A stretch of 32,000 bases of DNA from positions 1 to 32,000 of the forward strand of contig NQJD01000009.1 in NCBI GenBank assembly GCA_004284765.1, given 5' to 3'. Positions 6,187 through 32,000 of the stretch are shown here, piece by piece (within the stretch, counting starts at the first letter, position 1; each line of letters opens with the position of its first letter). The notes beneath the pieces are model-generated. The model saw only the letters and a list, made by a program, of their open reading frames with translations. It did no database searches and was not told the DNA's origin. Made by a program: the position numbers and the translations under genes. This DNA is from Candidatus Electronema aureum. GTDB taxonomy: Bacteria; Desulfobacterota; Desulfobulbia; Desulfobulbales; Desulfobulbaceae.

Positions 6187-6954
6187 TTATTCTTTCATAA
6201 TCTGAATGACGCGCTCATCCAAACAGGAACGAAGGAAAGCGTTCATCTGCCGCTGGTCGCTGCTATCATAAAAAGCCAGCATGAGCTGATTGAATTCTAA
6301 CTGCCGTTTTGCCGGAAGATTGATTGCCGGAAAGCCATTGTGCAAGAGCAGTCCGTTCATCATGAAACGGCCCATGCGCTTGTTGACATCGTAGAAAAAT
6401 TGGTGCCGCGCCATTGTCAGAAAAATAAAAATTGCCTTATCGTAAATGTCAGGCAATTGCTCCGCATCCTTTGTCATCTGCGCAAACAGCTCCGGCAACT
6501 TGTCTGCTGAAGGCGGCATGTGCGCTGTTCCCGCAATCGTCACGCCGCCGGAGCGAAACTTTCCCCATTCCAAGGCATCTTCCTTAGCGGCCAGCGCATG
6601 AATGGCGCAGGCTATTTCCGCCTTAACTGCAAATCTATTTTCTTCAATCAACTGCAACAGCAACCGCCACGCCTGATGCTGATTCAGTGCAATCTGCTGA
6701 TCACTAACTTTATGCCCGCCAACCGTGATGCCGTCCAGCAGGGTTTGTATCTCCGGCAGGGTGTAATTGATGCCCTCAAGATTGACCGCATCGCAGATGA
6801 ACTCCGGCAGCATCCGTTTGGCGAGCATGAGAGCCTTGGCTTTGTTGGGCTGCATGTGCCAGTGGGAATCTTTCATTTTTTCATGCAATGCAATATCAGA
6901 CCGCAATGCGTATTCCTTCCCGTCGGGCAATTTCGATAATTGTGCTCTCGTCAT
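6187..6954 (-). CDS. Fic/Doc-family protein with non-canonical Doc-like active-site motif
   Basis: HQFFYDVNKRMGRFMMNGLLLHNGFP aligns to the Fic motif HxFx(D/E)GNGRxxR but carries Doc-like D-V-N-K-R. The N-terminal AVNLEGINYT resembles the (S/T)xxxE(G/N) helix. The start is uncertain: 6954 overlaps the MNT gene by 59 nt, and the alternative ATG at 6876 avoids the overlap. Confidence 0.75.
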   Translation of the reverse strand: MTRAQLSKLPDGKEYALRSDIALHEKMKDSHWHMQPNKAKALMLAKRMLPEFICDAVNLEGINYTLPEIQTLLDGITVGGHKVSDQQIALNQHQAWRLLLQLIEENRFAVKAEIACAIHALAAKEDALEWGKFRSGGVTIAGTAHMPPSADKLPELFAQMTKDAEQLPDIYDKAIFIFLTMARHQFFYDVNKRMGRFMMNGLLLHNGFPAINLPAKRQLEFNQLMLAFYDSSDQRQMNAFLRSCLDERVIQIMKE

Positions 6955-7219
6955 CTTGCTCCCAGCGGTTCAGGCCTACTGGTATAGGTTCTATCCGGTT
7001 GTCTGTGCGGGCGGCAGTCTTCCAGAGCAGATTTATATCTTCCCGGCTGCATGAGTGGTCATATTTGTCAGATATAACAAGCAAATCAATATCACTCCAT
7101 TGATGACTGCCGCCTCGTGCGTATGAACCGAAAAGCACTCCAAATCGGACTGAGATGCCTTGCCGCAAAAGCTCCTGCAAATATTTTCTTACTGACTGTT
7201 TAATTGATTCTTCAGCCAT
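6896..7219 (-). CDS. Minimal nucleotidyltransferase (MNT) domain protein
   Basis: GVLFGSYARGGSHQWSDIDLLV is the GSxxRG...DxD nucleotidyltransferase signature. 107 aa, overlapping the HEPN gene end by 31 nt. Confidence 0.85.
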   Translation of the reverse strand: MAEESIKQSVRKYLQELLRQGISVRFGVLFGSYARGGSHQWSDIDLLVISDKYDHSCSREDINLLWKTAARTDNRIEPIPVGLNRWEQDDESTIIEIARREGIRIAV

Positions 7220-7578
7220 GTGAATACTTCTTCGGTTTTTTGTAAAAGTCGTTGCGTCTCGTTCGGCGATGGAAGTGCTCCCCAGAGTTCTGGGTAACGG
7301 CCCTCAATATTGCATGGATTCATTTCTGACAAAAGATCCGCCTGCTCTGCTTCAAAAGCGATGCCAGTCAATTCGGCGAGCCTTGCCAAGTTATGAATTC
7401 TCGGAGCAATATCTTGAGTATGACGACAAACGTGCGCCTTCAGAATTTTTTCCAAGGTGAGATGAAGGAAGAAAAGACCGTGACGAATTTTCTTCGACTG
7501 GATGAGCTGGCCAGCCACCTCAAAATCTTCCTCCGCACCTGTCAGCCAATGAGCAATATGTTTTTCTATGTCCATCAT
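7189..7578 (-). CDS. HEPN domain protein
   Basis: 129 aa. HWLTGAEEDFEVAGQL...LEKILKA...PRIHNLARL...EGRYPE is the helical HEPN pattern with the R/H motif region. Adjacent to the MNT gene. Confidence 0.8.
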   Translation of the reverse strand: MMDIEKHIAHWLTGAEEDFEVAGQLIQSKKIRHGLFFLHLTLEKILKAHVCRHTQDIAPRIHNLARLAELTGIAFEAEQADLLSEMNPCNIEGRYPELWGALPSPNETQRLLQKTEEVFTWLKNQLNSQ

Positions 7579-12103: not shown

Positions 12104-12147
12104 TGGCGACCAACCTGTTCAACCTTAAACAACAACGAATTGCCTAT

Positions 12148-13968
12148 ATGTTCAAGACCCTTCTCTTCGGCCTGATGCTGGCCTTTCTTGCTCTTCTCGC
12201 CCCGACTAAGAGCCACGCTGCGCACGGGGTATCTATTGACGGCAAGCTGAAATACCCTGCTGGGTACAGCCAATTTGACTACACCTCTGCGGCAGCAAAA
12301 AAAGGCGGCAGTCTGACACTGCACGATATCGGCAGTTTTGATAAGATGAATCCCTATACTCTCAAGGGAACTCCGCCGTTTGGGCTGGACAACTTTGTCT
12401 TTGAGCCGCTGGCTGTGAGCAGTTTAGACGAGCCGTTCGCCGCCTACGGTTTGATTGCCAAGGATATTGAGTTGGCGGCGGATAAAAAATCCGTTACCTT
12501 CACCTTGGATGAACGAGCCAAATTTTCTGATGGCTACCCTGTTATGGCAGAGGATGTCAAGTATTCGTTAGACACGCTGAAAAGCGACAAGGCTCACCCT
12601 TCATACCAGATTTATCTTCAAGACATCAGCAATGCGGAGATTCTTGAGCCGCTGAAGATTCGCTTCAATTTTGCTAAAGTCAATCGCGAGCTGCACATGC
12701 TTGCGGCCCAGCTGCCAGTGCTGAACAAGAAATATTACGAGAAGAACGGCTTTGGCGAGGACAGTAAGGCGGACCCTATGCTGCCGCCGGTCGGCTCTGG
12801 ACCGTACCTTGTCAAAGAGGTTAATCCGGGCAAGGCTATTACCTATGCTCGCAACCCAAACTACTGGGCTGCTGATCATCCTGCCCGTAAGGGTATGTTC
12901 AACTTCGATACGGTCATGGTCAAGTATTTCAAGGATCAGATCGTCGGTGTGGAGGCGTTCAAGGCAGGCGACTTTGACTATATGTGGGTTAATGTTGCCA
13001 AGCAATGGCAGCGTGACCTTACAGGCCGTCAGTTCGACAGCGGCAAGCTACTGAGGAAGGAGTTCCCGCACAACAACAACGCGGGGATGCAGGGCTTTCT
13101 CTTCAACACCCGGCGACCTTTCTTCAACGACCGTAAAGTGCGGCAGGCACTCGGCTTGGCCTTTGATTTTGAATGGGCCAACAGCTCCTTGTTCTTTAAC
13201 CAATACACCCGGAACAATTCCTATTTCAGCAACTCCGAGCTGGCGGCAACCGGGTTACCCAGTGAAGCCGAACTGAAGCTACTCAAACCCTTGCAGGAAA
13301 AATATTCTGAGGCAATGCCGCCAGAGGTTTTCACTCAGCCGTTAGTTGCGCCGAGCACCACGCCGCCGAACAGTCTGCGCGGCAATCTCAAGCTGGCCCA
13401 ACAGATGCTGACAGAACAGGGCTGGCAGATCAAGGACGGGGTGCTGACTGGCAAGGACGGCACTAAGTTCGAGTTTGAGATACTCCTCTCCGGCTCTTTC
13501 TTCGACCGGGTCATGGCCCCTTATGTGAAGAACTTAGAAAAACTGGGCATTAAGGCTAAGTATCGACTGATTGACCCAGCTCTGTATGAAGACCGAATCA
13601 AGAGTTTCAATTTCGATATGATCGTGCATAGCTTTAGTCAGTCGCAGTCTCCGGGCAATGAACAGCGGGACAACTGGGCCTCGTCTTCTGCCTCGCACCA
13701 AGGTTCAGGCAATGTAGCCGGAGTGCAATCACCGATAGTGGATAGCTTAGTCGATTCATTGATCTATGCTCAAAGCCAAGACGAGCTGACTGCGGCCTGC
13801 AAAGCCTTGGATCGGGTGCTGTGGTACGGCTATTATGTCGTACCCAACTGGTATTTAGCGTATCATCGGGTGGCCTTTGCCAGCAAACTCAAGCTACCGG
13901 AGAAACTGCCGCTCTACTACAATCCCTATCAGCAGCTCTGGACGTGGTGGACGGAGGAAGGCAAGTAG
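12148..13968 (+). CDS. ABC transporter substrate-binding protein, family 5 (peptide/YejA-like)
   Basis: Signal peptide MFKTLLFGLMLAFLALLAPTKSHA, then GGSLTLHDIGSFDKMNPYTLKG...GSGPYLVKE...ITYARNPNYW, typical of SBP family 5. Start moved to 12148 from the ORF-track TTG at 12103. No permease or ATPase genes are adjacent. Confidence 0.85.
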   Translation: MFKTLLFGLMLAFLALLAPTKSHAAHGVSIDGKLKYPAGYSQFDYTSAAAKKGGSLTLHDIGSFDKMNPYTLKGTPPFGLDNFVFEPLAVSSLDEPFAAYGLIAKDIELAADKKSVTFTLDERAKFSDGYPVMAEDVKYSLDTLKSDKAHPSYQIYLQDISNAEILEPLKIRFNFAKVNRELHMLAAQLPVLNKKYYEKNGFGEDSKADPMLPPVGSGPYLVKEVNPGKAITYARNPNYWAADHPARKGMFNFDTVMVKYFKDQIVGVEAFKAGDFDYMWVNVAKQWQRDLTGRQFDSGKLLRKEFPHNNNAGMQGFLFNTRRPFFNDRKVRQALGLAFDFEWANSSLFFNQYTRNNSYFSNSELAATGLPSEAELKLLKPLQEKYSEAMPPEVFTQPLVAPSTTPPNSLRGNLKLAQQMLTEQGWQIKDGVLTGKDGTKFEFEILLSGSFFDRVMAPYVKNLEKLGIKAKYRLIDPALYEDRIKSFNFDMIVHSFSQSQSPGNEQRDNWASSSASHQGSGNVAGVQSPIVDSLVDSLIYAQSQDELTAACKALDRVLWYGYYVVPNWYLAYHRVAFASKLKLPEKLPLYYNPYQQLWTWWTEEGK

Positions 13969-13973
13969 TGGCA

Positions 13974-14411
13974 ATGGAGGCGATAACCTTGTTTCTGCCT
14001 GATCTGGCTGCCACAGCCGAGCTGGGCCGTCAGTTAGGCAGGAAGGCGCAGAATGGTGATGTCATCCTCTTGTACGGCGGGCTTGGGGTTGGTAAAACCA
14101 CCCTCACCCAAGCCATTGCCGTTGGGCTGGAGGTGCCGCCGGATCAGTATGTCAGCAGCCCATCCTTTGCTCTTCTGCACGAATACCAAGGCCGTCTGCC
14201 GCTCTTTCATCTTGATTGCTACCGGTTAGCAGGTGAGGAGGATGTGGAAGGGGCAGGATTAGCTGAGTGCATCGGCAGAACCGGCCTGACTGTGATTGAA
14301 TGGCCGGAACGGTTGGGTAACCTGCGGCCTGAGGAACGGTTAGATATTTTCATAGAAGCGATCAGCGAAAGCGAGCGGCTGTGCAGGATGGAGGCGTGGG
14401 GGAAAGGTTGA
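13974..14411 (+). CDS. tsaE: tRNA t6A37 biosynthesis ATPase TsaE (YjeE)
   Basis: LYGGLGVGKTTLTQAI (P-loop), SPSFALLHEY, HLDCYRL and IEWPE are hallmark TsaE motifs. An alternative GTG start at 13968 overlaps the upstream stop. Confidence 0.85.
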   Translation: MEAITLFLPDLAATAELGRQLGRKAQNGDVILLYGGLGVGKTTLTQAIAVGLEVPPDQYVSSPSFALLHEYQGRLPLFHLDCYRLAGEEDVEGAGLAECIGRTGLTVIEWPERLGNLRPEERLDIFIEAISESERLCRMEAWGKG

Positions 14412-14494
14412 GATGTAAAAAATAGATTTTCGGGCAACCTATTGATTATAAAATAAATAAAATAACAGAGGTACTATACTGCTGAAAAAATTTT

Positions 14495-14519
14495 CGGTGA
14501 ATTCAAGTTCCAAGTGCAA
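14495..14519. repeat. IS30 terminal inverted repeat (transposase 3' side)
   Basis: Reverse complement of 15541-15565 with 3 mismatches. The transposase stop (14503) lies inside it. Confidence 0.8.
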
Positions 14520-15463
14520 GCGTTAAGTAGTCTCGCCAAAATAGCTCTTTTGGTGTTTTAAATCCAAAAAATTTTCGAGACCTGTTGTTGAGCTTTTCCA
14601 TAATAGCTTTAACATCCTGCGTGTCCAGCGTGTCAAAGCTCGCTCCTTTTGGGAGGTATTGCCGTATAAGTCCGTTCGTATTTTCGTTGAGCCGCGCGTT
14701 GCCAAGCCTGATACGGATGCGCGAAGAAGCAGTCTGCCTGAAGAGTGCTTGCGAACTCCTGATGCAAGGCAAATTCCTTGCCGTTGTCGCAGGTTAGGGT
14801 ATGAACTTGGTCTTGGTAGGGAAGGAGGGTTTGGACAAGTGCCTGATTGACGCTATCTGCCCGTTTATCCGGGGCAAGAGCGATAACTCGCGTCTTCCGT
14901 TCTGCCAAGGTGATAAGAACAGCTCCTCCCCGACGACCGATCACCGTATCCACCTCCCAATCACCAATCCGAGAACGTTCTTCAACGATGTCGGGGCGAT
15001 GATCTCTCGAGACCCGGTTTTTAATCGTGCCCCGTCGGTCAGTGCTGCCATAAGTTTTCTTTTTTTTTCGGCAGCATAGATGGATATACAGAGTTCCTCC
15101 GTGCTGCTTGTCATGAGCAACATGTTGATAGATTCGTTCATGACTGACCTGAAGATTTTTGGTTGCGGAGAGCCAGCCGCTGATGTGTTCAGGACTCCAA
15201 TCTTCGCGGAGAAGATCATTGACAATATGCCATATTTCTTCAGAAATTCTCCGCTCGGCCTTTTCTTGGCGGCGTTGACCAGCCAGTTGTTGTGCCTGCT
15301 GGGGCCGATAGCCGCGTTCACCGCAATTACGCTGCAATTCTCGACCGATAGTTGATCTGTGTCGGCCAAGCTGCAAGGCTATGGCTGATTTCTGATGCCC
15401 TGCTTGCTTTAAGGCGTAAATTTGATTACGTTCTGCTTCGGTGAGTTGTGTGTAGTTTTTCAT
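14503..15463 (-). pseudogene. IS30-family transposase, split by a frameshift near 14690-14705
   Basis: ORF 14633-15463 carries the HTH (LGRHRSTIGRELQRN), DWEVDTV and LTCDNGKEF, and ends ...FFAHPYQAWQRAAQRK. ORF 14503-14772 in another frame continues ...LNENTNGLIRQYLPKGASF...LNNRSRKFFGFKTP. The frames join at the CGCGCGG run, consistent with a 1-nt insertion. The catalytic E (NENTNG) lies downstream of the shift. Confidence 0.8.
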
Positions 15464-24557: not shown

Positions 24558-27377
24558 ATGAGAATCTGCTCCTCGCGGCATGTCCTGCCCGCTCTATTGT
24601 TTGCTGCTTGCTGCGGGGTTCCTGCAACTGCTGCTGCCAAATTCCTGCTGGTACCTGACCAGTATCCTACTATTCATCAAGCCATTGAAGCAGCAGGCCC
24701 GAACGACACAGTTCGGGTCGCTGCCGGAACCTATGCCGATAATATCATTCTGCGGCCTAACGTAACCTTGGAAGGCGGCTGGAATGCCCAATTCAGCGAG
24801 CGAAACCCCTCCAAATATAGCACCACCATCAACGGCAGCACACGCGGCGGCTATGTCGTTGCGGGCGCAGATCAAGCGGTTGTTGACGGCTTCATCATTA
24901 CTGGCGGCGGCCCGCCCATGATGATGCCTGATGCCGATGTGGGTCCAGGCGTGTACTGCGATTCTGCTTCTTTCACGGTCAAAAATAATGTCATTACCGG
25001 CAACAAGGCAGCTGGAATTTACGCTCGTACCTGCCAACTGCTGATCACCGGCAACATCATTGCCGCCAACGGAAAAGCAGGAATTTTTATGGAGGACGGC
25101 AGCGCAGCCCAGATTAATGGCAACCTGATCACGCGCAATCTCTGGGCTGGAATCAACACCGGCGGCGAAATGCCTTCAAAGGTTGAGATCATCAATAATG
25201 CGATTCACAGTAACAAAAAAGCTGGCATCAACGTCGCATTGGCTACTGGCTTAGTCGCTAATAATCTGATATATAAAAACGGTGAAGCCGGGGTGCGCTG
25301 TGGTCTTGCTGATATGCAGATTATCAACAACACCGTGGCAGATAATGGTTTGGCTGGAGTTTCGGTAGCTGAATCTGCGCGACCAAAGTCAGAAACAATT
25401 TCTGGTAAATCATCAGAACTGAAGCTACCGATGATCAAAAACAACATCGTCACTGGCAACGGCGAGGCTGGCATCAAGTCCTTTGGTGGTGGCTACACTT
25501 ATAACATTCTCTACGGTAATAATCGAGTAGATGGCTTTTACCCTGATTTTCTCTGGTATCTACGCCTTCAGTTTGGTGGCTACGAGGATCAAGCCACGCT
25601 GGAAAAAACCAAAAATATTCTTGCTGATCCCCTTTTTGTTAATCCGGCCCAGCATGATTATCGCCTCAGACCCGGCTCTCCGGCTATTGATGGCGGCGAT
25701 CCTGCTGCGCCGTTCAACGATAAAAATTTTGGGCCATCACTTGGCTCTGATCTCAACGACATGGGTGCTTATGGCGGGCAATACACAGTGGCAGAGAACA
25801 GGCCGACGAACCAGCCACCCCAAGCCCAGATTGAGGCACTGAAAGAACAGGTCTATGCCGGAGATAAAGTGGTACTGAACGGCGCGGTCAGTATCGATCC
25901 TAATGGTGATGAAATTCGCTACGACTGGCAACTCATCGGTAAACCGATGCAGAGTATGGCAGCTCTTCAGCCACAAAAGGACGGCACTTGTCAGCTTACG
26001 GCGGATAAAGGCGGCCAGTATGCAGTACAGCTGACCGTCACTGACCGCTGGGGTTTGCAGGGCAAAACAGCGCAGCTGACCGTGAATGTGGACCCGGACA
26101 AGCCACCCACAGCCAAGATCAGCAAGCCGCACGATCCGTCCAAGCTCGGTCAAACCGTAACTCTTTCTGCCTATGACAAGAACAAGCAAAGTGGCAATGA
26201 ATTGAGCTATCTCTGGATGATAGCCAAAAAACCTGCGGCCAGCCAAGCACAGCTCTCCGCTCCGAATGCCGAGCGGCCTTCGTTTGTTGCAGATGCACCT
26301 GGTTGCTACACCCTGCGACTGACTGTCGGTAATGGCAAAAAAAACAGCGAGCCGGATACTGCCTATTTTTGCACAAAGGAAAGTCAAGTTCCGGGCAAAA
26401 GGTCAGTACCTGATGAGTATCCGACCATCCAAGCGGCCTTAGATACCGCTGAAGACGGCGATGATGTGATCGTCCAAGCAGGTACCTATAAGGAAAATAT
26501 CATCATCGACAAAGCGGTTAATTTGATCGGTGTGGGGAATCCAGTGATTGACGGCGGGGGGAAGAATGCCGACGAAGCAGCTGTTTTCGTTTGCTATCTC
26601 GACAGTAAAGCGACAGGCCGCGTTCAAGGTCTCACCGTCACTGGTGGCGGCGCGGGCCAGTTTGGCCACGGCATCCAGATTCTCAACTGCTCGCCAGAAA
26701 TTGTTGGCAACCGCATTACCGGCAACAAGCACGTAGGCGTAGGTATTCACGGACAAAAGGGCTTCACCGAGAACGCCAAAATTCATAACAACTACATCTA
26801 CGACAACGCGATTGGTGTGAGCAACGGTCTTGGCGCAGGCGGGCAAATTTATCACAATAACATCTACAACAACAAAGTGACCGGCATTGGTGTGCGCGGC
26901 TTGGCCACGCCCGTTGTGCGCAATAACGCCATTTACGGCAACTACATCGGTATTGGAGTCAGAGAAGAGGCGTATCCGACAGTTGAGGGTAATGAAATTC
27001 GTGACAATATCACCGGGATCGCAGTCAATCCGGGTACCGAAGGAGCTGCGCACTTGGGAGCCTCAGGGAGCAAAATTATCGTGCGCGGCAATATTGTCCG
27101 TAATAACCGCAAGTCTGGTATCTTTATTTCCTCGCTCAACCGGAGTGACCTTTTTGTTCAAGGCAATTCTGTTACCAGCAACGCGACAACAGAGGAAAGC
27201 AGAAGCGGCGGTGTCGTGACCGGCTATCCGCATCAATCTTTGGCGAAAGCATTTATGGACAACAACGCGGTTAGCGGTAATAATCAACGAGATATTCAGC
27301 TGTTCCATGAGCTGGGTGAATCAGCCGGAACAATAGGCAGTTCACAAGGTCGCAGACCAAATTTTCAAGGGAGGTGA
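24558..27377 (+). CDS. Exported protein with two right-handed parallel beta-helix (PbH1/NosD-like) modules separated by two PKD-like Ig domains
   Basis: Signal/lipobox-like N-terminus (LPALLFAACCG). Both halves open with VPD(Q/E)YPTIQ/H(Q/A)A(I/L)...D(T/V)(V/I)...AGTY..NII and continue with many GN.I..N...GI beta-helix repeats. The middle has two ~90-aa PKD-like repeats (...YDWQLIGKP...TVTDRWG..., ...YLWMIAKKP...). Confidence 0.85.
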   Translation: MRICSSRHVLPALLFAACCGVPATAAAKFLLVPDQYPTIHQAIEAAGPNDTVRVAAGTYADNIILRPNVTLEGGWNAQFSERNPSKYSTTINGSTRGGYVVAGADQAVVDGFIITGGGPPMMMPDADVGPGVYCDSASFTVKNNVITGNKAAGIYARTCQLLITGNIIAANGKAGIFMEDGSAAQINGNLITRNLWAGINTGGEMPSKVEIINNAIHSNKKAGINVALATGLVANNLIYKNGEAGVRCGLADMQIINNTVADNGLAGVSVAESARPKSETISGKSSELKLPMIKNNIVTGNGEAGIKSFGGGYTYNILYGNNRVDGFYPDFLWYLRLQFGGYEDQATLEKTKNILADPLFVNPAQHDYRLRPGSPAIDGGDPAAPFNDKNFGPSLGSDLNDMGAYGGQYTVAENRPTNQPPQAQIEALKEQVYAGDKVVLNGAVSIDPNGDEIRYDWQLIGKPMQSMAALQPQKDGTCQLTADKGGQYAVQLTVTDRWGLQGKTAQLTVNVDPDKPPTAKISKPHDPSKLGQTVTLSAYDKNKQSGNELSYLWMIAKKPAASQAQLSAPNAERPSFVADAPGCYTLRLTVGNGKKNSEPDTAYFCTKESQVPGKRSVPDEYPTIQAALDTAEDGDDVIVQAGTYKENIIIDKAVNLIGVGNPVIDGGGKNADEAAVFVCYLDSKATGRVQGLTVTGGGAGQFGHGIQILNCSPEIVGNRITGNKHVGVGIHGQKGFTENAKIHNNYIYDNAIGVSNGLGAGGQIYHNNIYNNKVTGIGVRGLATPVVRNNAIYGNYIGIGVREEAYPTVEGNEIRDNITGIAVNPGTEGAAHLGASGSKIIVRGNIVRNNRKSGIFISSLNRSDLFVQGNSVTSNATTEESRSGGVVTGYPHQSLAKAFMDNNAVSGNNQRDIQLFHELGESAGTIGSSQGRRPNFQGR

Positions 27378-27704: not shown

Positions 27705-28031
27705 ATGAAAGGCTTGACAATGAGATTCGTACTGGGAATGGCAGCAGCAGCTTTGGTATTTGCTGGTACCGCATCAGCTCAGAAGGCAACTGGTAATTTG
27801 AGCATTGATCCTGAAACGTTGCAGACCGTTGACCAAGCTCTGCTCAAGATGCAGCAGGATATGATCCAGAAAAATTATGCTTCTATGTTGCTGAAGCCGC
27901 AGATGATGAGCAAAATGATGGCAGAGCGCACCCCGCAGAATTTCATGCAGGGAGCCATTCAGCCGGTCATGATGCAGAAAATGCGTGATCAGATTAAACC
28001 GCAGCAGATGGGTATCATGTCCACCAGATAA
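27705..28031 (+). CDS. Met/Gln-rich secreted protein, paralog 1 (108 aa)
   Basis: AGGAGGAG RBS 7 nt upstream. Signal peptide MKGLTMRFVLGMAAAALVFAGTASA. By hand count the mature 83 aa contain 13 Met, 14 Gln, no Cys and no His. Motifs DPETLQTVDQ, KMQQDMIQ, IQPVMMQKM. Confidence 0.8.
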   Translation: MKGLTMRFVLGMAAAALVFAGTASAQKATGNLSIDPETLQTVDQALLKMQQDMIQKNYASMLLKPQMMSKMMAERTPQNFMQGAIQPVMMQKMRDQIKPQQMGIMSTR

Positions 28032-28082
28032 TAAATATCTGCTGCGTAGAGCTGCTTTCCTACTACGGGAAGCAGTCTATAG

Positions 28083-28117
28083 AAGCTGGGGATGGTATCA
28101 TCCCCAGCTTTTTTTTT
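28083..28117 (+). terminator. Rho-independent terminator after paralog 1
   Basis: 11-bp stem AAGCTGGGGAT / ATCCCCAGCTT, 6-nt loop, then a T9 run. Confidence 0.8.
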
Positions 28118-28256
28118 ATCAGCAGGCAGCATTTTTTTTCCTCACCTCATTTTTTCCATCCTGCATCATTTTTTTCTTGTCATAGCGCAGTTTGGTATCT
28201 ATCCGAATGCTCGCACAAGATATTGTTCTCCACCGATAAAAAAACGAACAGGTGAC

Positions 28257-28286
28257 CTTGACACTATCAACAGCTCTGTGCTATCC
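28257..28286 (+). promoter_or_regulatory. Candidate promoter of paralog 2
   Basis: TTGACA-18 nt-TATCCT. Shares CTTGAC(A/T)-N9-GCTCTGTGCTA with the paralog 3 upstream region at identical spacing. Confidence 0.4.
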
Positions 28287-28391
28287 TATTCTTATATGAG
28301 AAATGCTCCTGACAAAAAAGGCGAAGAGAAGAAGTAGGGAGCTAATCGCGACAAGAAAATAGCAAAACAGTTAAAAATGGGGGAGACTACA

Positions 28392-28733
28392 ATGAAGACA
28401 ATAAAGAAGGTTAAAATTAGGATTGTTCTTGGAATAGCAGCATTCGGTTCTATAATGACAGCTGGTTCTGCATCTGCATTCACCGTTGATCAAGAGATAA
28501 CAAATATGATCAACGGAATCATAGTACAGATGCAGCAACAGACAATGGCTGAATTGTATGCACAGGCACCGCTGAAGAATCAGATGCGCGGCAAGATGAT
28601 GCAAGAATTTTCTTCAAAAACAATTCTGATGAATCAGATTCAGCCGGTAATGATGGAAGCGAACCTAAAAGCAACCAAAAACGCACTGATGGAACGGATG
28701 GTTAGTAGGCCGATTCCTCTACCAGGATCATGA
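28392..28733 (+). CDS. Met/Gln-rich secreted protein, paralog 2 (113 aa)
   Basis: GGGGGAG lies 6 nt upstream of the ATG at 28392 (the ORF track starts at 28377). Signal peptide ...IAAFGSIMTAGSASA. Mature chain VQMQQQTMAELYAQAPLKNQMRGKMMQE...IQPVMMEA has no Cys or His. Confidence 0.75.
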   Translation: MKTIKKVKIRIVLGIAAFGSIMTAGSASAFTVDQEITNMINGIIVQMQQQTMAELYAQAPLKNQMRGKMMQEFSSKTILMNQIQPVMMEANLKATKNALMERMVSRPIPLPGS

Positions 28734-28770
28734 TCTGCCGATAAAAGGCAGTTGTGTTCAATATATAAAA

Positions 28771-28807
28771 TGCCGGAGAACGCCCTGAGCTTCTCCGGCA
28801 TTTTTTT
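28771..28807 (+). terminator. Rho-independent terminator after paralog 2
   Basis: 10-bp stem TGCCGGAGAA / TTCTCCGGCA, 10-nt loop, T7 run. Confidence 0.8.
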
Positions 28808-28838
28808 GTGACATTGTTTCGCAACTCATCCTGAGGGC

Positions 28839-28868
28839 TTGACTTCTCAGTCTGCTCTGTGCTACCGT
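28839..28868 (+). promoter_or_regulatory. Candidate promoter of paralog 3
   Basis: TTGACT-18 nt-TACCGT. Shares the GCTCTGTGCTA block with the paralog 2 promoter. Confidence 0.4.
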
Positions 28869-28910
28869 ACTCTTACATCTTATGAACATAATAATAAAAA
28901 AGGGGACAAA

Positions 28911-29375
28911 ATGAATATACTGAATAAAATTCGTACCAGCCTAATTTGGGGAGCTACAGCAGCAGGCCTAATCCTGACAGCAGCCCCGGCCAGTGCGCTT
29001 GAATTTGACCCAAAAACTCTGCAAACTGTTGACGAGATGATACGGAAAATGCAGCAGGAGACGATGCAGCAGCAATATGCAGCTATGCCGCTCAAAAATG
29101 AGTTGCCGGGAAAAATGATGAATAATATGTATCAGTATGCCTCAACCGCTTACCGACAGAATATTCAGCCGCAGATGGTGCAAGTGATAATCGGCAATAT
29201 GCGGCCTTGGGAGTTTCCTGGAAAATTCAAACAAGCGATGATGCCGAGCATAGTTCCGCAGGTCAGTAATCAGATCAAACAGATACAACTCCAGCAGATG
29301 CAGGAGGGAATCAACGATCCTTCGTTTCCGAACGTACCCGGCATGTTGCAGAAAACAGAAGAGCAGGTTAAATAA
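28911..29375 (+). CDS. Met/Gln-rich secreted protein, paralog 3 (154 aa; bridges short and long subtypes)
   Basis: AAGGGGA RBS. Signal peptide ...LILTAAPASA. N-terminal half resembles paralog 1 (DPKTLQTVDEMIRKMQQETMQQQY). C-terminal half resembles paralogs 4 and 5 (YRQNIQPQMVQVIIGNMRPWEFPGKFKQAMMPSIVPQVSNQIK...FPNVPG). Confidence 0.8.
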   Translation: MNILNKIRTSLIWGATAAGLILTAAPASALEFDPKTLQTVDEMIRKMQQETMQQQYAAMPLKNELPGKMMNNMYQYASTAYRQNIQPQMVQVIIGNMRPWEFPGKFKQAMMPSIVPQVSNQIKQIQLQQMQEGINDPSFPNVPGMLQKTEEQVK

Positions 29376-29405
29376 CCGTCTCTGATTTTGAAGTCGAAAA
29401 GTTGA

Positions 29406-29438
29406 AAGCCGTGCCACAAGGTGCGGCTTTTTTATTTT
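29406..29438 (+). terminator. Rho-independent terminator after paralog 3
   Basis: Stem AAGCCGTGCC / GGTGCGGCTT (two G-U pairs), loop ACAA, T-rich tail. Confidence 0.65.
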
Positions 29439-29565
29439 CAGCACGAGCTACTCGATGCACTTGCAACGTTTCTTTTATTGTGAATAAAAACAACAAGAAG
29501 GTGCAAAGGTTAGGTGTCGCTCGCTGTGGAAAGTAAAAAAAATTATACATAGTCTTGTAAAAGAC

Positions 29566-29594
29566 TTGCAAAATAATGCACAAAACGCTATGTT
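29566..29594 (+). promoter_or_regulatory. Candidate promoter of paralog 4
   Basis: TTGCAA-17 nt-TATGTT. A 6-bp inverted repeat AGTCTT-gtaa-AAGACT (29551-29566) abuts the -35. Confidence 0.3.
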
Positions 29595-29707
29595 TGTCAA
29601 ACAGGAGCAATTCTGTGCTGATGCAGGAAAAAATGGAGCTGACATGTTTTGAGAGATATCCGTTCGCGTGGTGTGGGCGGTTTTTCAAACAAGAGGAGGA
29701 GGAAAAA

Positions 29708-30469
29708 GTGAAAAAAGCAGCAATCAGATTTACAGTTGGAATTGGGCTGGCTCTTGCCGTGACCGCAGGTTCGGCAGTAGCTCAGAATGCCTCGACAAAT
29801 CCGATGGCAGGTATGGCCAGCAGCATCGCCGCAGGTATGGCCAGCAGCATGATTTCTGGTGTCAATCAGCAAGTCAGCGGCAATGTCAAGATGGACACGC
29901 TGTTCTCACCTGAGGCAGATCAGGTTGCTCAGTCTGGACCGGCATCAGTTCTGGACATCCGCCAGATGATTGAGCAGGCTGTGCAGAATATGCCACAGCA
30001 GCAGCGTGATTCGCTGGCCCAGCAGATGACTACGCAGAATCTGACTTTGCTTCAGCAGGGGTCAGCAGCGGCCAGCCAGATCAGAACGAAAGTGCGGGAC
30101 ACCATCATGACGGACCGCTACAAAAACATTTCTGCAATGGCTCCGAATCTGTACAGAAGCAATATTCAGCCTCAGATGGTACAGACCATCATCAGCAACA
30201 TCAAACCTTGGGAGCTGCCTAATCGCTTCAAGAGCAAGATGATGCCGATGATCGTTGGTCAGGTGAGCAACCAGATTAAAATGCCGCAGATCAATTTCAT
30301 GCAGGAGAACATCAATAGTGCTGAGTTCCCCAATGTGCCTGGTTTGCCGAGTGGTATGGCTGGTTCTGTACCCAACCAAATCAAAGAGCAGCAGATGCAG
30401 CAAATGCAGCAGGGCGTGATGGATCCGAATTTCATCAATCCTCAGGACCTGATGAACGGCGGTATGTAA
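29708..30469 (+). CDS. Met/Gln-rich secreted protein, paralog 4 (253 aa)
   Basis: GTG start 7 nt after AGGAGGAGGA. Signal peptide KKAAIRFTVGIGLALAVTAGSAVA. Core LDIRQMIEQAVQNMPQQQ...QNLTLLQQ...QIRTKVRDTIMTDR...YRSNIQPQMVQTIISNIKPWELPNRFKSKMMPMIVGQVSNQIK...FPNVPG. No Cys or His in the mature chain. Confidence 0.8.
   Translation: MKKAAIRFTVGIGLALAVTAGSAVAQNASTNPMAGMASSIAAGMASSMISGVNQQVSGNVKMDTLFSPEADQVAQSGPASVLDIRQMIEQAVQNMPQQQRDSLAQQMTTQNLTLLQQGSAAASQIRTKVRDTIMTDRYKNISAMAPNLYRSNIQPQMVQTIISNIKPWELPNRFKSKMMPMIVGQVSNQIKMPQINFMQENINSAEFPNVPGLPSGMAGSVPNQIKEQQMQQMQQGVMDPNFINPQDLMNGGM
29807..29850 (+). repeat. Tandem 24-bp duplication inside paralog 4 (AGMASSIA / AGMASSMI)
   Basis: GCAGGTATGGCCAGCAGCAT occurs at 29807-29826 and again at 29831-29850; the 20 nt are identical and the period is 24 nt. 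Confidence 0.9.
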
Positions 30470-30496
30470 GCTGAAACGCAGTCTTTGTTAAGCTTG

Positions 30497-30534
30497 AAGC
30501 CGGAGACGCGAGGAGTGTCTTCGGCTTTTATTTT
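30497..30534 (+). terminator. Rho-independent terminator after paralog 4
   Basis: 11-bp stem AAGCCGGAGAC / GTCTTCGGCTT (one G-U pair), 9-nt loop, then TTTTATTTT. Confidence 0.7.
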
Positions 30535-30652
30535 GATAGCGGAGCAGTTGAAAAAATTTTACAAACTTGGCAAAAATTGCTATTTTAAAGAGTAGTCGTA
30601 TTTTATGGGAAGAGGAGCTGGTGGAATTATGAAAAAACGAGGAGAGAAAGGG

Positions 30653-31633
30653 ATGAAGAAGACAATCAAAGTTGCGTTGGGTCTGTCCGTTATCTGTTTG
30701 GTAGCAGCAGGTTCAGCTTGGGCTGGCGGCAGTAATCCGGGCGATATGGGTATGGGCAATGTAGGCGTAAACCCCATGATGGGCGGCATGAACCCGATGA
30801 GCAGTGGCTTCAACATGCCCGTTAATCCCAATTCGTTGGCTGGCACCTATGCAGGAGCGGGCGTTCAGTCAGGCTACGGCGGTGGAATGCCGGGCGGCAT
30901 TGGAATGGGTGGAACCATGCCGGGCAACAGTGGAATGCAGCAGCAGGGTGGGATGCCTATGCTCGACCTGCGGCAAGTGGTTATGCAGGGCATTCAGACA
31001 CTACCGCAGCAGCAGCAGTACAACGGGGCAATCGGCATGGCCAATCAGAATCTGTCCCTGCTGAATCAAAGCATGGGGAACGGCATGTCTCCGGTCAATC
31101 AGATTCGGTACAGCGTGCGGGATCAAATCATGACCAATCGCGTCAACGATATCTCCCGGATGGGCCAAGCCACTTTCAGGCCGATGATTCAGCCCGGTGC
31201 CGTACAGAGCATGATCAGCCAAATTCAGCCGTGGAATTTCCCCTACCGCTTCCAAAGTGCCATGATGCCTGCCATGATTCCTATGGTTAGTTCGCCAATC
31301 AAGCAGCAGCAGATGGCTTTCATGCAGAACGGCATCATGAGTCAAGGTTTTCCCAATGTTCAGCTGCCGATGCCTGCTTTTGGGCCTCAAGGCATGTACA
31401 ATAACATGATGCCAAATAATCAAGGGATGATGAATGGCGGCATGATGCAGCAGGGCGGAATGATGAACAACGGTGGATATTACCCATCAATGAATGGTGG
31501 CATGATGATGGGTAATGGTATGATGCCGGGTAACCAAGGCATGTATAACAATGGAATGCCTGGTGGAATGGGAATGGGTGGTATGATGGGTGGCAGCATG
31601 ATGCCGGGCGGTCAGGGCATGTACGGCTACTGA
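30653..31633 (+). CDS. Met/Gln/Gly-rich secreted protein, paralog 5 (326 aa) with Gly/Met low-complexity N- and C-terminal regions
   Basis: GGAGAG lies 6 nt upstream of the ATG at 30653 (alternative starts 30629 and 30605). Signal peptide MKKTIKVALGLSVICLVAAGSAWA. Core is homologous to paralog 4 (LDLRQVVMQGIQTLPQQQQ...QNLSLLNQ...QIRYSVRDQIMTNR...IQPGAVQSMISQIQPWNFPYRFQSAMMPAMIPMVSSPIK...FPNV). Flanks resemble GGMNPM... and ...GGMMQQGGMMNNGG...GMGMGGMMGGSMMPGGQGMYGY. Confidence 0.8.
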   Translation: MKKTIKVALGLSVICLVAAGSAWAGGSNPGDMGMGNVGVNPMMGGMNPMSSGFNMPVNPNSLAGTYAGAGVQSGYGGGMPGGIGMGGTMPGNSGMQQQGGMPMLDLRQVVMQGIQTLPQQQQYNGAIGMANQNLSLLNQSMGNGMSPVNQIRYSVRDQIMTNRVNDISRMGQATFRPMIQPGAVQSMISQIQPWNFPYRFQSAMMPAMIPMVSSPIKQQQMAFMQNGIMSQGFPNVQLPMPAFGPQGMYNNMMPNNQGMMNGGMMQQGGMMNNGGYYPSMNGGMMMGNGMMPGNQGMYNNGMPGGMGMGGMMGGSMMPGGQGMYGY

Positions 31634-31659: not shown

Positions 31660-31698
31660 AAGCCGGGGATGCGAGAGCGTCTCCGGCTTCGTTATTTT
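31660..31698 (+). terminator. Probable terminator after paralog 5
   Basis: Stem AAGCCGGGGA / TCTCCGGCTT (one G-U pair), 10-nt loop, then CGTTATTTT (an interrupted T run). Stem sequence is related to the terminator after paralog 4. Confidence 0.5.
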
Positions 31699-31811
31699 CA
31701 GCTTCCCTCTTGACGCGCCTGCTGCACCCGGCTACATTGGCCTTTTTTGCATGAAAAATAGGTTTATCCACAACGGCGGTTGTGCCGCAGAAAAAGAGGG
31801 GAAAAAGAAAG

Positions 31812-32000
31812 GTGGAGCATAAAAACGCCATTGTTTTGGCTATGTTTGGCACCACCATTGAGTCTGCTCTCAAAGGACTGCTCAATATCCGCGACAAAAT
31901 GAAGGCGCATTACCGAGAAACGCCAGTACGGATCGCTTTTACCTCCAATATAATCCGCAAAAAATGGCGAAAGCGGGCTACTGACCGAGAGTACATCAAA
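31812..32000 (+). CDS. cbiK: Sirohydrochlorin cobaltochelatase CbiK-like protein, N-terminal 63 codons (runs off the right edge)
   Basis: Own translation from GTG 31812: (M)EHKNAIVLAMFGTTIESALKGLLNIRDKMKAHYRETPVRIAFTSNIIRKKWRKRATDREYIK. The K-x-A-[IL]-[VL]-[LV]-x-x-FGT[ST] ... [VF]R-x-AFTS-x-x-I-x-x-K-x-R-x-R pattern matches the CbiK N-terminus as I recall it (Salmonella MKKALLVVSFGTS...LFRAFTSGMIIRKLRQR). Absent from the ORF track because it is open-ended. Confidence 0.6.
   Translation, partial: MEHKNAIVLAMFGTTIESALKGLLNIRDKMKAHYRETPVRIAFTSNIIRKKWRKRATDREYIK

Follow-up and report, generated by a model that had tools for sequence, protein, structure and literature searches.

A tandem array of five plus-strand genes, here called paralogs 1 to 5, lies in a 32,000-nucleotide stretch of the freshwater cable bacterium Candidatus Electronema aureum (contig NQJD01000009.1, positions 1 to 32,000; the window). 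The genes encode exported, methionine- and glutamine-rich proteins whose mature chains contain neither cysteine nor histidine. These proteins form a new family outside every characterised family tested, and the family appears to be confined to cable bacteria. Both cable-bacterial genera have members, with an expansion to five genes in freshwater Electronema. In cable bacteria, periplasmic fibres carry electrons over distances of centimetres, and the five proteins are tentatively interpreted as structural or matrix proteins of this periplasm that associate with one another. We infer this function, and it may prove analogous to a known kind. An earlier note on the same DNA had described the array as tandem, secreted, Met/Gln-rich, Cys/His-free paralogues and had offered four functional hypotheses for it (soft-metal binding, a methionine sink, a distant relative of periplasmic chaperones and a structural or matrix protein). 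The description held, and the four functions stay at the level of hypotheses.

The gene array and its coding status

The five genes lie where they had been placed from the sequence, and the annotation of a closed chromosome (OW818638.1, 2,758,593–2,765,447) calls the same five. Paralog 1 occupies positions 27705–28031 (108 amino acids, 83 in the mature chain), paralog 2 positions 28392–28733 (113 and 84), paralog 3 positions 28911–29375 (154 and 125) and paralog 5 positions 30653–31633 (326 and 302), each with an ATG start. Paralog 4 (29708–30469), which is 100% identical to the E. aureum protein with locus tag CDV28_10932, has 253 amino acids when read from GTG. In the database and in the closed genome, paralog 4 is a protein of 284 amino acids with a start about 93 nt upstream (window 29615–29707). 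That call is probably too long, and the GTG at 29708 is favoured because the orthologues begin with an MKKAAI-like sequence and because of the GAGGAGGAGG ribosome-binding site. A purine-rich, Shine-Dalgarno-like sequence precedes each of the five genes. Paralogs 1 and 4 have the perfect AGGAGG, which only one of 16 other window genes shares.

Ratios of nonsynonymous to synonymous substitution (dN/dS) against orthologues were 0.04–0.26 for the five genes, with one outlier of 0.50 for paralog 1 against Electronema sp. PJ. The individual ranges were 0.10–0.25 for paralog 1 (apart from that pair), 0.08–0.23 for paralog 2, 0.04–0.14 for paralog 3 and 0.09–0.19 for paralog 4. This codon-level purifying selection indicates that the five frames are coding and that the long antisense open reading frames are shadows. 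The G+C content (GC) of the array, 0.42–0.51, is below that of the rest of the window, and the codons GCA/GCT, GTT/GTA, GGT, AAA and AAT are enriched relative to the neighbouring genes. Both features would be compatible with strong expression as well as with a history unlike that of the neighbours.

Export signals, composition and motifs

All five products carry the signal peptides that the earlier note had read, in which a basic N-region leads into a hydrophobic core and an AxA site. Sec-type signal peptides are predicted from this sequence layout on all paralogues and orthologues; among the orthologues the layout is kept and the sequence drifts. The hand counts proved exact: the mature chain of paralog 1 (83 residues) has 13 Met and 14 Gln, that of paralog 5 (302 residues) has 53 Met, and every mature chain lacks Cys and His. 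Against the composition of 16 other window genes (Met 2.2%, Gln 4.4%, Cys 1.8%, His 2.2%), the mature chains, 822 residues in all, contain 112 Met where 18 are expected and 110 Gln where 36 are expected, and the chance of finding no Cys and no His in such a length is about 3e-15. Methionine makes up 9.6–17.5% of the mature chains, which are mildly basic (isoelectric point, pI, 8.2–9.8).

The paralogy is real. In BLASTP comparisons, paralogs 1, 2 and 3 matched one another with E values of 1e-13 to 1e-16, paralogs 3 and 4 at 2e-28, paralogs 4 and 5 at 4e-36, and paralogs 3 and 5 at 9e-17. The proteins were said to be homologous in a mosaic way. The motifs claimed for paralogs 3–5, for paralogs 4–5 and for the short I-Q-P-V-M-M version in paralogs 1–2 hold as written. 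The motif claimed for paralogs 1–3 needs correction in one part: D-P-x-T-L-Q-T-V-D is found in paralogs 1 and 3, but paralog 2 has V-D-Q-E-I-T-N-M-I-N at that place and shares only the following MQQ...Y...LK...KMM part.

Paralog 1 is a short form that consists of the N-module (DPxTLQTVD...MQQ...Y...LK...KMM) and IQPVMM. Paralog 2 is a second short form, with a diverged N-module and a C-terminal RPIPLPGS, and in paralog 3 the N-module of paralog 1 is fused to the IQP...PW...MMP...FPNV core of paralogs 4 and 5. In paralog 4 the signal peptide is followed by a Met/Ala/Ser-rich spacer, an LDIRQ helix module, the IQP...PW...MMP...FPNV core and a QQMQQMQ tail. Paralog 5 has a conserved core of 133 amino acids between uncharged, low-complexity tails of 79 and 90 amino acids rich in Gly, Met, Asn, Pro, Tyr and Gln. 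In this genome these tails contain no Lys or Arg and at most one Asp or Glu, and only about 4% of the residues of paralog 5 are charged. The tails diverge strongly between species and take the form (GGYGGGM)n at one locus (L007).

Methionine columns were kept as Met in 91% of orthologue cells for paralog 1, 87% for paralog 2, 82% for paralog 3 and 74% for paralog 4, whereas Leu, Ile and Val were mostly kept in 60–71% (Ile in 84–85% in paralogs 1 and 4). Replacement of Met by Leu, Ile or Val among orthologues is rare, and four Met are invariant across genera in the paralog 1 type. Invariance extends beyond Met to Pro, Trp, Arg, Phe, Ile, Gln and Lys (in IQP, PW-x-x-P-x-RF, MMP and FPNV), which points to a specific fold or interface. 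Two methionines are never spaced at i+2 in paralogs 1, 2 and 3, where 1.2–1.8 such pairs are expected in each, and the spacings i+1, i+3 and i+4 exceed the shuffle expectation in paralog 1 only. The absence of i+2 spacing fits Met placed along one helix face and is unlike the M-x-M pattern of CusF.

Only one tryptic peptide of usable size is free of Met, in paralog 1, and the Lys/Arg-free ends of paralog 5 give tryptic peptides of 83 and 109 residues. Standard shotgun proteomics would therefore be expected to detect the family poorly.

Relation to known families and folds

That the proteins belong to no recognisable family was confirmed by every search made. Searches of the five proteins against Pfam (E<=10) and NCBIfam (E<=0.1) returned noise only. 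Profile searches of the PDB with three alignments, followed down to E<=10, gave nothing significant, the best matches being Pumilio repeats (E 0.03) and designed helical proteins; Spy, CpxP, ZraP, CusF, CopC, PcoC and SilE were not among the matches. AlphaFold2 modelled mature paralog 4 with a predicted local distance difference test score (pLDDT) of 49. For the conserved core, modelled from a 38-sequence alignment covering both genera, four helices were predicted with a pLDDT of 62 and a predicted TM-score (pTM) of 0.43. A Foldseek search of the PDB with this modest-confidence core model found no match (best E 5.3, TM <=0.31). By sequence, and by fold as far as tested against the PDB, the family is an orphan.

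Distribution among cable bacteria

A word-indexed search with paralog 4 recovered 24 orthologue clusters, and every cluster with an organism name was from Electronema. A scan of GTDB, with one genome per species, found nine loci, all in Electronema species or in metagenome-assembled genomes of Desulfobulbaceae. HMMER, run exhaustively with a profile against 1.84 billion cluster representatives, gave 18 matches at E<=1e-3, 17 of them real; the eighteenth, a repetitive protein of 804 amino acids, is spurious. All real related clusters with an organism name came from Electronema or Electrothrix. A distant profile match from Candidatus Electrothrix sp. AR3, used in turn as a seed, led to homologues of about 165 amino acids in E. 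communis, GW3-4, AR1, AR3 and AR5. In a metagenome scan with the paralog 1 profile, 11 loci were found among 241 million records. A profile search that included the distant members was swamped by low-complexity candidates and returned four proteins. One family member of 218 amino acids, a Joint Genome Institute (JGI) metagenome protein (P0037), is misnamed 'flagellar biosynthesis component FlhA' at its source.

In two closed Electrothrix genomes, a diverged paralog 4-like gene is directly followed by a clear paralog 1 orthologue. The latter encodes proteins of 103–106 amino acids with 45–48% identity (E 2e-34) and no Cys or His, and paralog 1 is the best-conserved member between the genera. 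Both residues are absent from every Electronema orthologue examined, whereas the Electrothrix paralog 4-like proteins (E. communis, GW3-4) contain one Cys and three to five His. Absence of Cys and His across the family is an Electronema trait. At the LDxRQ position the Electrothrix homologues have FSATQ or LSLAQ.

A proposed structural or matrix role

Among the four functions proposed by the earlier note, a structural or matrix role fits the new evidence best. It is favoured because the family combines lineage restriction with export and specific conserved interfaces, and because a set of several paralogues with individual expression signals includes, in paralog 5, a design of a core with sticky tails. 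The linkage of the array to a secreted beta-helix/PKD protein in seven assemblies, and the vertical inheritance of the family, which in each of the two genera lies beside cobalamin genes (cbiK or cbiG), argue in the same direction, as do the all-helical AlphaFold core (modest confidence, pLDDT 62) and a Met spacing that fits one helix face. Each paralogue has a promoter-like site and a hairpin terminator (weak after paralog 2), and paralogs 1 and 4 have perfect ribosome-binding sites; abundant structural subunits that are produced in fixed proportions are usually encoded in this way. We infer the periplasmic localisation, the self-assembly and any relation to the conductive fibres, the protein sheath or the cell-cell cartwheel.

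In such an assembly, the conserved core (the LDxRQ helix, IQP, PW-x-x-P-x-RF, MMP and FPNV) would mediate specific association between paralogues. On the helix faces, flexible Met side chains arranged in stripes could provide malleable, sulfur-rich packing surfaces, and the uncharged Gly/Met/Tyr/Asn/Gln tails of paralog 5 may drive higher-order gel-like or insoluble assembly. Paralog 5 resembles the head and tail domains of keratins, plant glycine-rich wall proteins and sulfur-globule proteins in that a helical core is joined to fast-evolving, uncharged ends rich in Gly and Tyr (and Met). The likeness is one of analogy without homology: Met replaces Ser as the partner of Gly, and the family is bacterial and periplasmic.

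Several observations weigh against this role. Gene content varies (Electrothrix has two members, E. halotolerans only paralogs 4 and 5 within 10 kb, and Electronema sp. TJ no paralog 5), whereas the fibres are universal, and the Electrothrix paralog 4-like protein is strongly diverged and has lost the PW segment. The picture of a helical bundle is weakened by the low confidence of both AlphaFold models (pLDDT 49 and 62). The locus tags had no match in the papers and supplements searched, a set outside which the 2019 genome/proteome paper fell, and the literature searched held no evidence on expression, abundance or localisation. The conservation of Met above that of Leu, Ile and Val (82–91% in paralogs 1–3) could equally reflect thioether chemistry, with metals or in redox reactions. 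A model of the fibre considers the attachment of nickel-dithiolene oligomers to cysteines (PMC13534509). Cys-free proteins cannot provide such attachment, which speaks against the family as a covalent anchor, not as a surrounding matrix. The structural, antioxidant, metal, chaperone and inclusion-envelope functions are not mutually exclusive, and a Met-rich matrix could also protect oxygen-sensitive fibres.

Alternative functions

The earlier note had also suggested a sacrificial periplasmic methionine buffer. Exposed Met would scavenge reactive oxygen species from cathodic O2 reduction and would be recycled by methionine sulfoxide reductases (Msr), in the manner of MrpX. This is rather unlikely, although it has a real precedent. 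MrpX of Azospira suillum has a signal peptide and 20% Met, is rapidly oxidised and is regenerated by YedY; its gene belongs to a yedY1-yedZ1-mrpX operon in the SigF/NrsF regulon and is induced by an extracytoplasmic function (ECF) sigma factor (PMC4436054). Cable bacteria reduce O2 fast, and their O2-reducing activity inactivates quickly (10.64898/2026.01.20.700514). The array proteins share with MrpX the signal peptide, the very high Met content, the periplasmic destination and a plausible Met-based chemistry, and their Met is conserved as Met. As small exported proteins they fit the MrpX type, with a Met share (9.6–17.5%) somewhat below about 20%. MrpX, compared here by its description, is however a single small protein with 44% charged residues, whereas the array comprises five Gln-rich, poorly charged paralogues (about 4% charged in paralog 5) with conserved non-Met motifs. 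A methionine sink requires composition; it needs neither invariant Pro, Trp, Arg and Phe motifs nor five distinct paralogues. Also, no yedYZ/msrPQ, msrA/B or SigF/NrsF genes occur in the window or at the related loci, nor were genes for a molybdopterin oxidoreductase, YedZ or an ECF sigma factor found there.

Binding of soft metals was a second suggestion, on the pattern of CusF, CopC and Ctr1, and is improbable. The proteins would act as buffers or chaperones with thioether-only periplasmic sites for Cu(I), Ag(I) or possibly Ni, either in protection from metals mobilised by cable-bacterial acidification or in the hand-over of nickel to the cofactor of the fibres. Cu(I) sites built from thioethers only are well established in CusB, in CusA and in the Mets motifs of Ctr1. 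The six-fold enrichment of Met, its conservation by position and the four Met invariant across genera in the paralog 1 type would suit such sites, and cable bacteria need periplasmic nickel (PMC11247825). Homology lends no support: similarity to CusF, CopC/PcoC or SilE/PcoE was absent at sequence and profile level. CusF, CopC/PcoC and SilE/PcoE are also Met-rich proteins of the periplasm, SilE/PcoE changing from a disordered to a helical state, but their defined sites pair Met with His or Trp, and their genes belong to cus, cop, pco or sil operons. The array family has no His in Electronema for HxxM or MxxH sites and no M-x-M in paralogs 1–3, and it lacks metal-resistance neighbours: genes for copper or silver efflux, a multicopper oxidase or a nickel transporter are missing from its flanks, and it does not lie in a cus, cop, pco or sil locus. 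The complete avoidance of His and Cys, the preferred ligands of Ni(II), in Electronema suggests, if anything, that nickel binding is being avoided, and cbiK lies beyond a terminator and encodes a protein without a signal peptide in this genome.

It is quite improbable that the proteins are ATP-independent periplasmic chaperones or holdases, in which amphipathic helices lined with Met would hold unfolded or hydrophobic clients, as Spy/CpxP do or as the methionine bristles in the M domain of SRP54 do, possibly as escorts of fibre subunits. Like Spy, CpxP and ZraP, they are predicted to be small, basic, helical periplasmic proteins, with Met on helix faces. The earlier note had relied on a loose likeness of LDxRQ to LTxxQ, but LDxRQ is not LTxxQ. 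No match to the Pfam families LTXXQ or Metal_resist was obtained at E<=10, and neither the PDB profile searches nor Foldseek linked the family to Spy, CpxP or ZraP. These searches give no support for a relationship to these chaperones, and the low-complexity tails of paralog 5 and the five-paralogue set would be unusual for a chaperone. It is very improbable that the proteins are envelope proteins of a sulfur or other inclusion, coating zero-valent sulfur from sulfide oxidation by analogy with SgpA/B/C of purple sulfur bacteria: several small secreted paralogues with Gly/Tyr-rich repeats in a sulfide oxidiser may recall Sgp proteins, but only paralog 5 is Gly/Tyr-rich, and periplasmic sulfur globules go unmentioned in the cable-bacteria literature examined.

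Possible relation to the conductive fibres

Cable bacteria are defined by a unique envelope whose protein part, like that of the fibres, is still to be identified, whereas descriptions of the nickel-organic fibre core are now emerging (PMC11976967; PMC11774119; PMC13534509). A comparative search centred on Ni and Fe proteins yielded no fibre-protein candidate (PMC11976967), and a methods review expects that proteomics may identify conduction proteins in future (PMC11774119). A structural chemistry paper of 2026 describes nickel-dithiolene ribbons within surrounding protein that contains sulfur amino acids (PMC13534509). The array family matches several features expected of a fibre or envelope component: it is exported, it is known only from cable bacteria, where both genera have it, and its sequences look built for assembly. 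It has so far been invisible to metalloprotein-centred searches. The five proteins are a short, concrete list of candidates for the protein part of the cable-bacterial envelope.

A more specific form of the structural or matrix role, doubtful as it stands, is that the proteins form a sulfur-rich, Cys/His-free sheath within which the nickel-bis(dithiolene) ribbons of the fibres or the cartwheel junctions are embedded and insulated. In this sheath, methionine thioethers would line the ribbon channel, the lack of His and Cys would prevent stray capture of Ni(II), and the tails of paralog 5 would render the assembly insoluble in sodium dodecyl sulfate (SDS). That almost every tryptic peptide contains Met, and that the ends of paralog 5 have no Lys or Arg, might explain why proteomics has not flagged the family. 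If the proteins are instead a Met-based antioxidant or metal buffer, they would give new insight into how an unprotected periplasmic oxygen cathode is survived. Either way, this is a Met/Gln-based periplasmic protein family without a characterised relative.

Genomic neighbourhood

In seven freshwater Electronema-type assemblies the order is a beta-helix/PKD protein gene followed by paralogs 1, 2, 3, 4 and 5. In the window the upstream gene (24558–27377, plus strand) encodes a secreted protein of 939 amino acids with two right-handed beta-helix (NosD-like) and two PKD domains by Pfam. Its identity across the seven loci is 68–98%, and it is a possible partner of the array. Identification of this neighbour as NosD was rejected (75.8 bits against the TIGR04247 cutoff of 300; no nosF, nosY or nosZ nearby).

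The other neighbours of the array are genes for two-component regulators, polA, and cbiK together with genes for an ABC transporter of the FecCD type. The 5' part of cbiK, which encodes a class II chelatase, lies at 31782–32000 on the plus strand and serves as a synteny anchor. Downstream of the array, cbiK and the FecCD-type transporter (permease and ATPase) are found in the window and at eight other loci; at locus L008, for example, cbiK, the FecCD permease and the ABC ATPase follow the array at 12135–15143. In Electrothrix, cbiG lies a few genes away from the gene pair. A signal peptide is apparent in CbiK of E. halotolerans and absent from the copies in E. aureum and at locus L011. A functional tie to cbiK, for instance as a periplasmic Ni chelatase, was rejected because a strong terminator lies between, because E. 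aureum CbiK has no signal peptide and because the Electrothrix neighbour is cbiG. The cobalamin genes are probably an ancestral synteny anchor, with cbiK outside the system.

The array is shorter elsewhere. In E. halotolerans (L008, 9815–11971) only paralogs 4 and 5 are present within 10 kb, and nuoM/nuoN-like genes take the place of the beta-helix gene on the upstream flank. In Electronema sp. TJ (L003, 401–2177) paralog 4 leads straight to cbiK with no paralog 5, and one further contig has three family members and then cbiK.

Transcription signals

Each spacer of 177–360 bp contains a sigma-70-like promoter match, by consensus. The match 5' of paralog 2 (28257–28298) reads TTGACA-18-TATCCT with an upstream TG. 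A promoter-like element 5' of paralog 3 (28838–28879) can be aligned with it, and an element of 42 nt common to the two upstream regions, CTTGAC...CTCTGTGCTAyCsTAyTCTTAyAT, resembles a duplicated promoter. Further consensus matches lie 5' of paralog 5 (30548–30590). A search for sigma-54 promoters gave fewer matches than chance, none meaningful. Hairpins resembling intrinsic terminators follow paralog 1 (28081–28112; 14-bp stem and T run), paralog 3 (29404–29431; 12-bp stem), paralog 4 (30496–30528; 14-bp stem) and paralog 5 (31660–31689; 13-bp stem, between the array and cbiK), with a weak one after paralog 2 (28735–28751; 5-bp stem); all these signals are on the plus strand. Taken at the level of consensus matches, this layout suggests five separately transcribed units. 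Short Logan contigs, considered as possible transcripts, gave no evidence of expression; the one that was inspected includes the start of the next gene.

Other observations

Elsewhere in the window, GC swings from 0.36 (8–9 kb) to 0.65 (5–6 kb). A Fic-domain gene, a nucleotidyltransferase/HEPN toxin-antitoxin pair and an IS30-like transposase were noted at 6187–7578 and 14633–15463, both on the minus strand; the transposase (HTH_38 and rve) has an open reading frame that overlaps the start of sbcB. At a Candidatus Electrothrix communis locus (L012, 8833–9432), a called gene of 199 amino acids has an in-frame TGA in the context GG*QHGECH. This TGA is a possible selenocysteine codon, and heterodisulfide-reductase-like genes adjoin the called gene.

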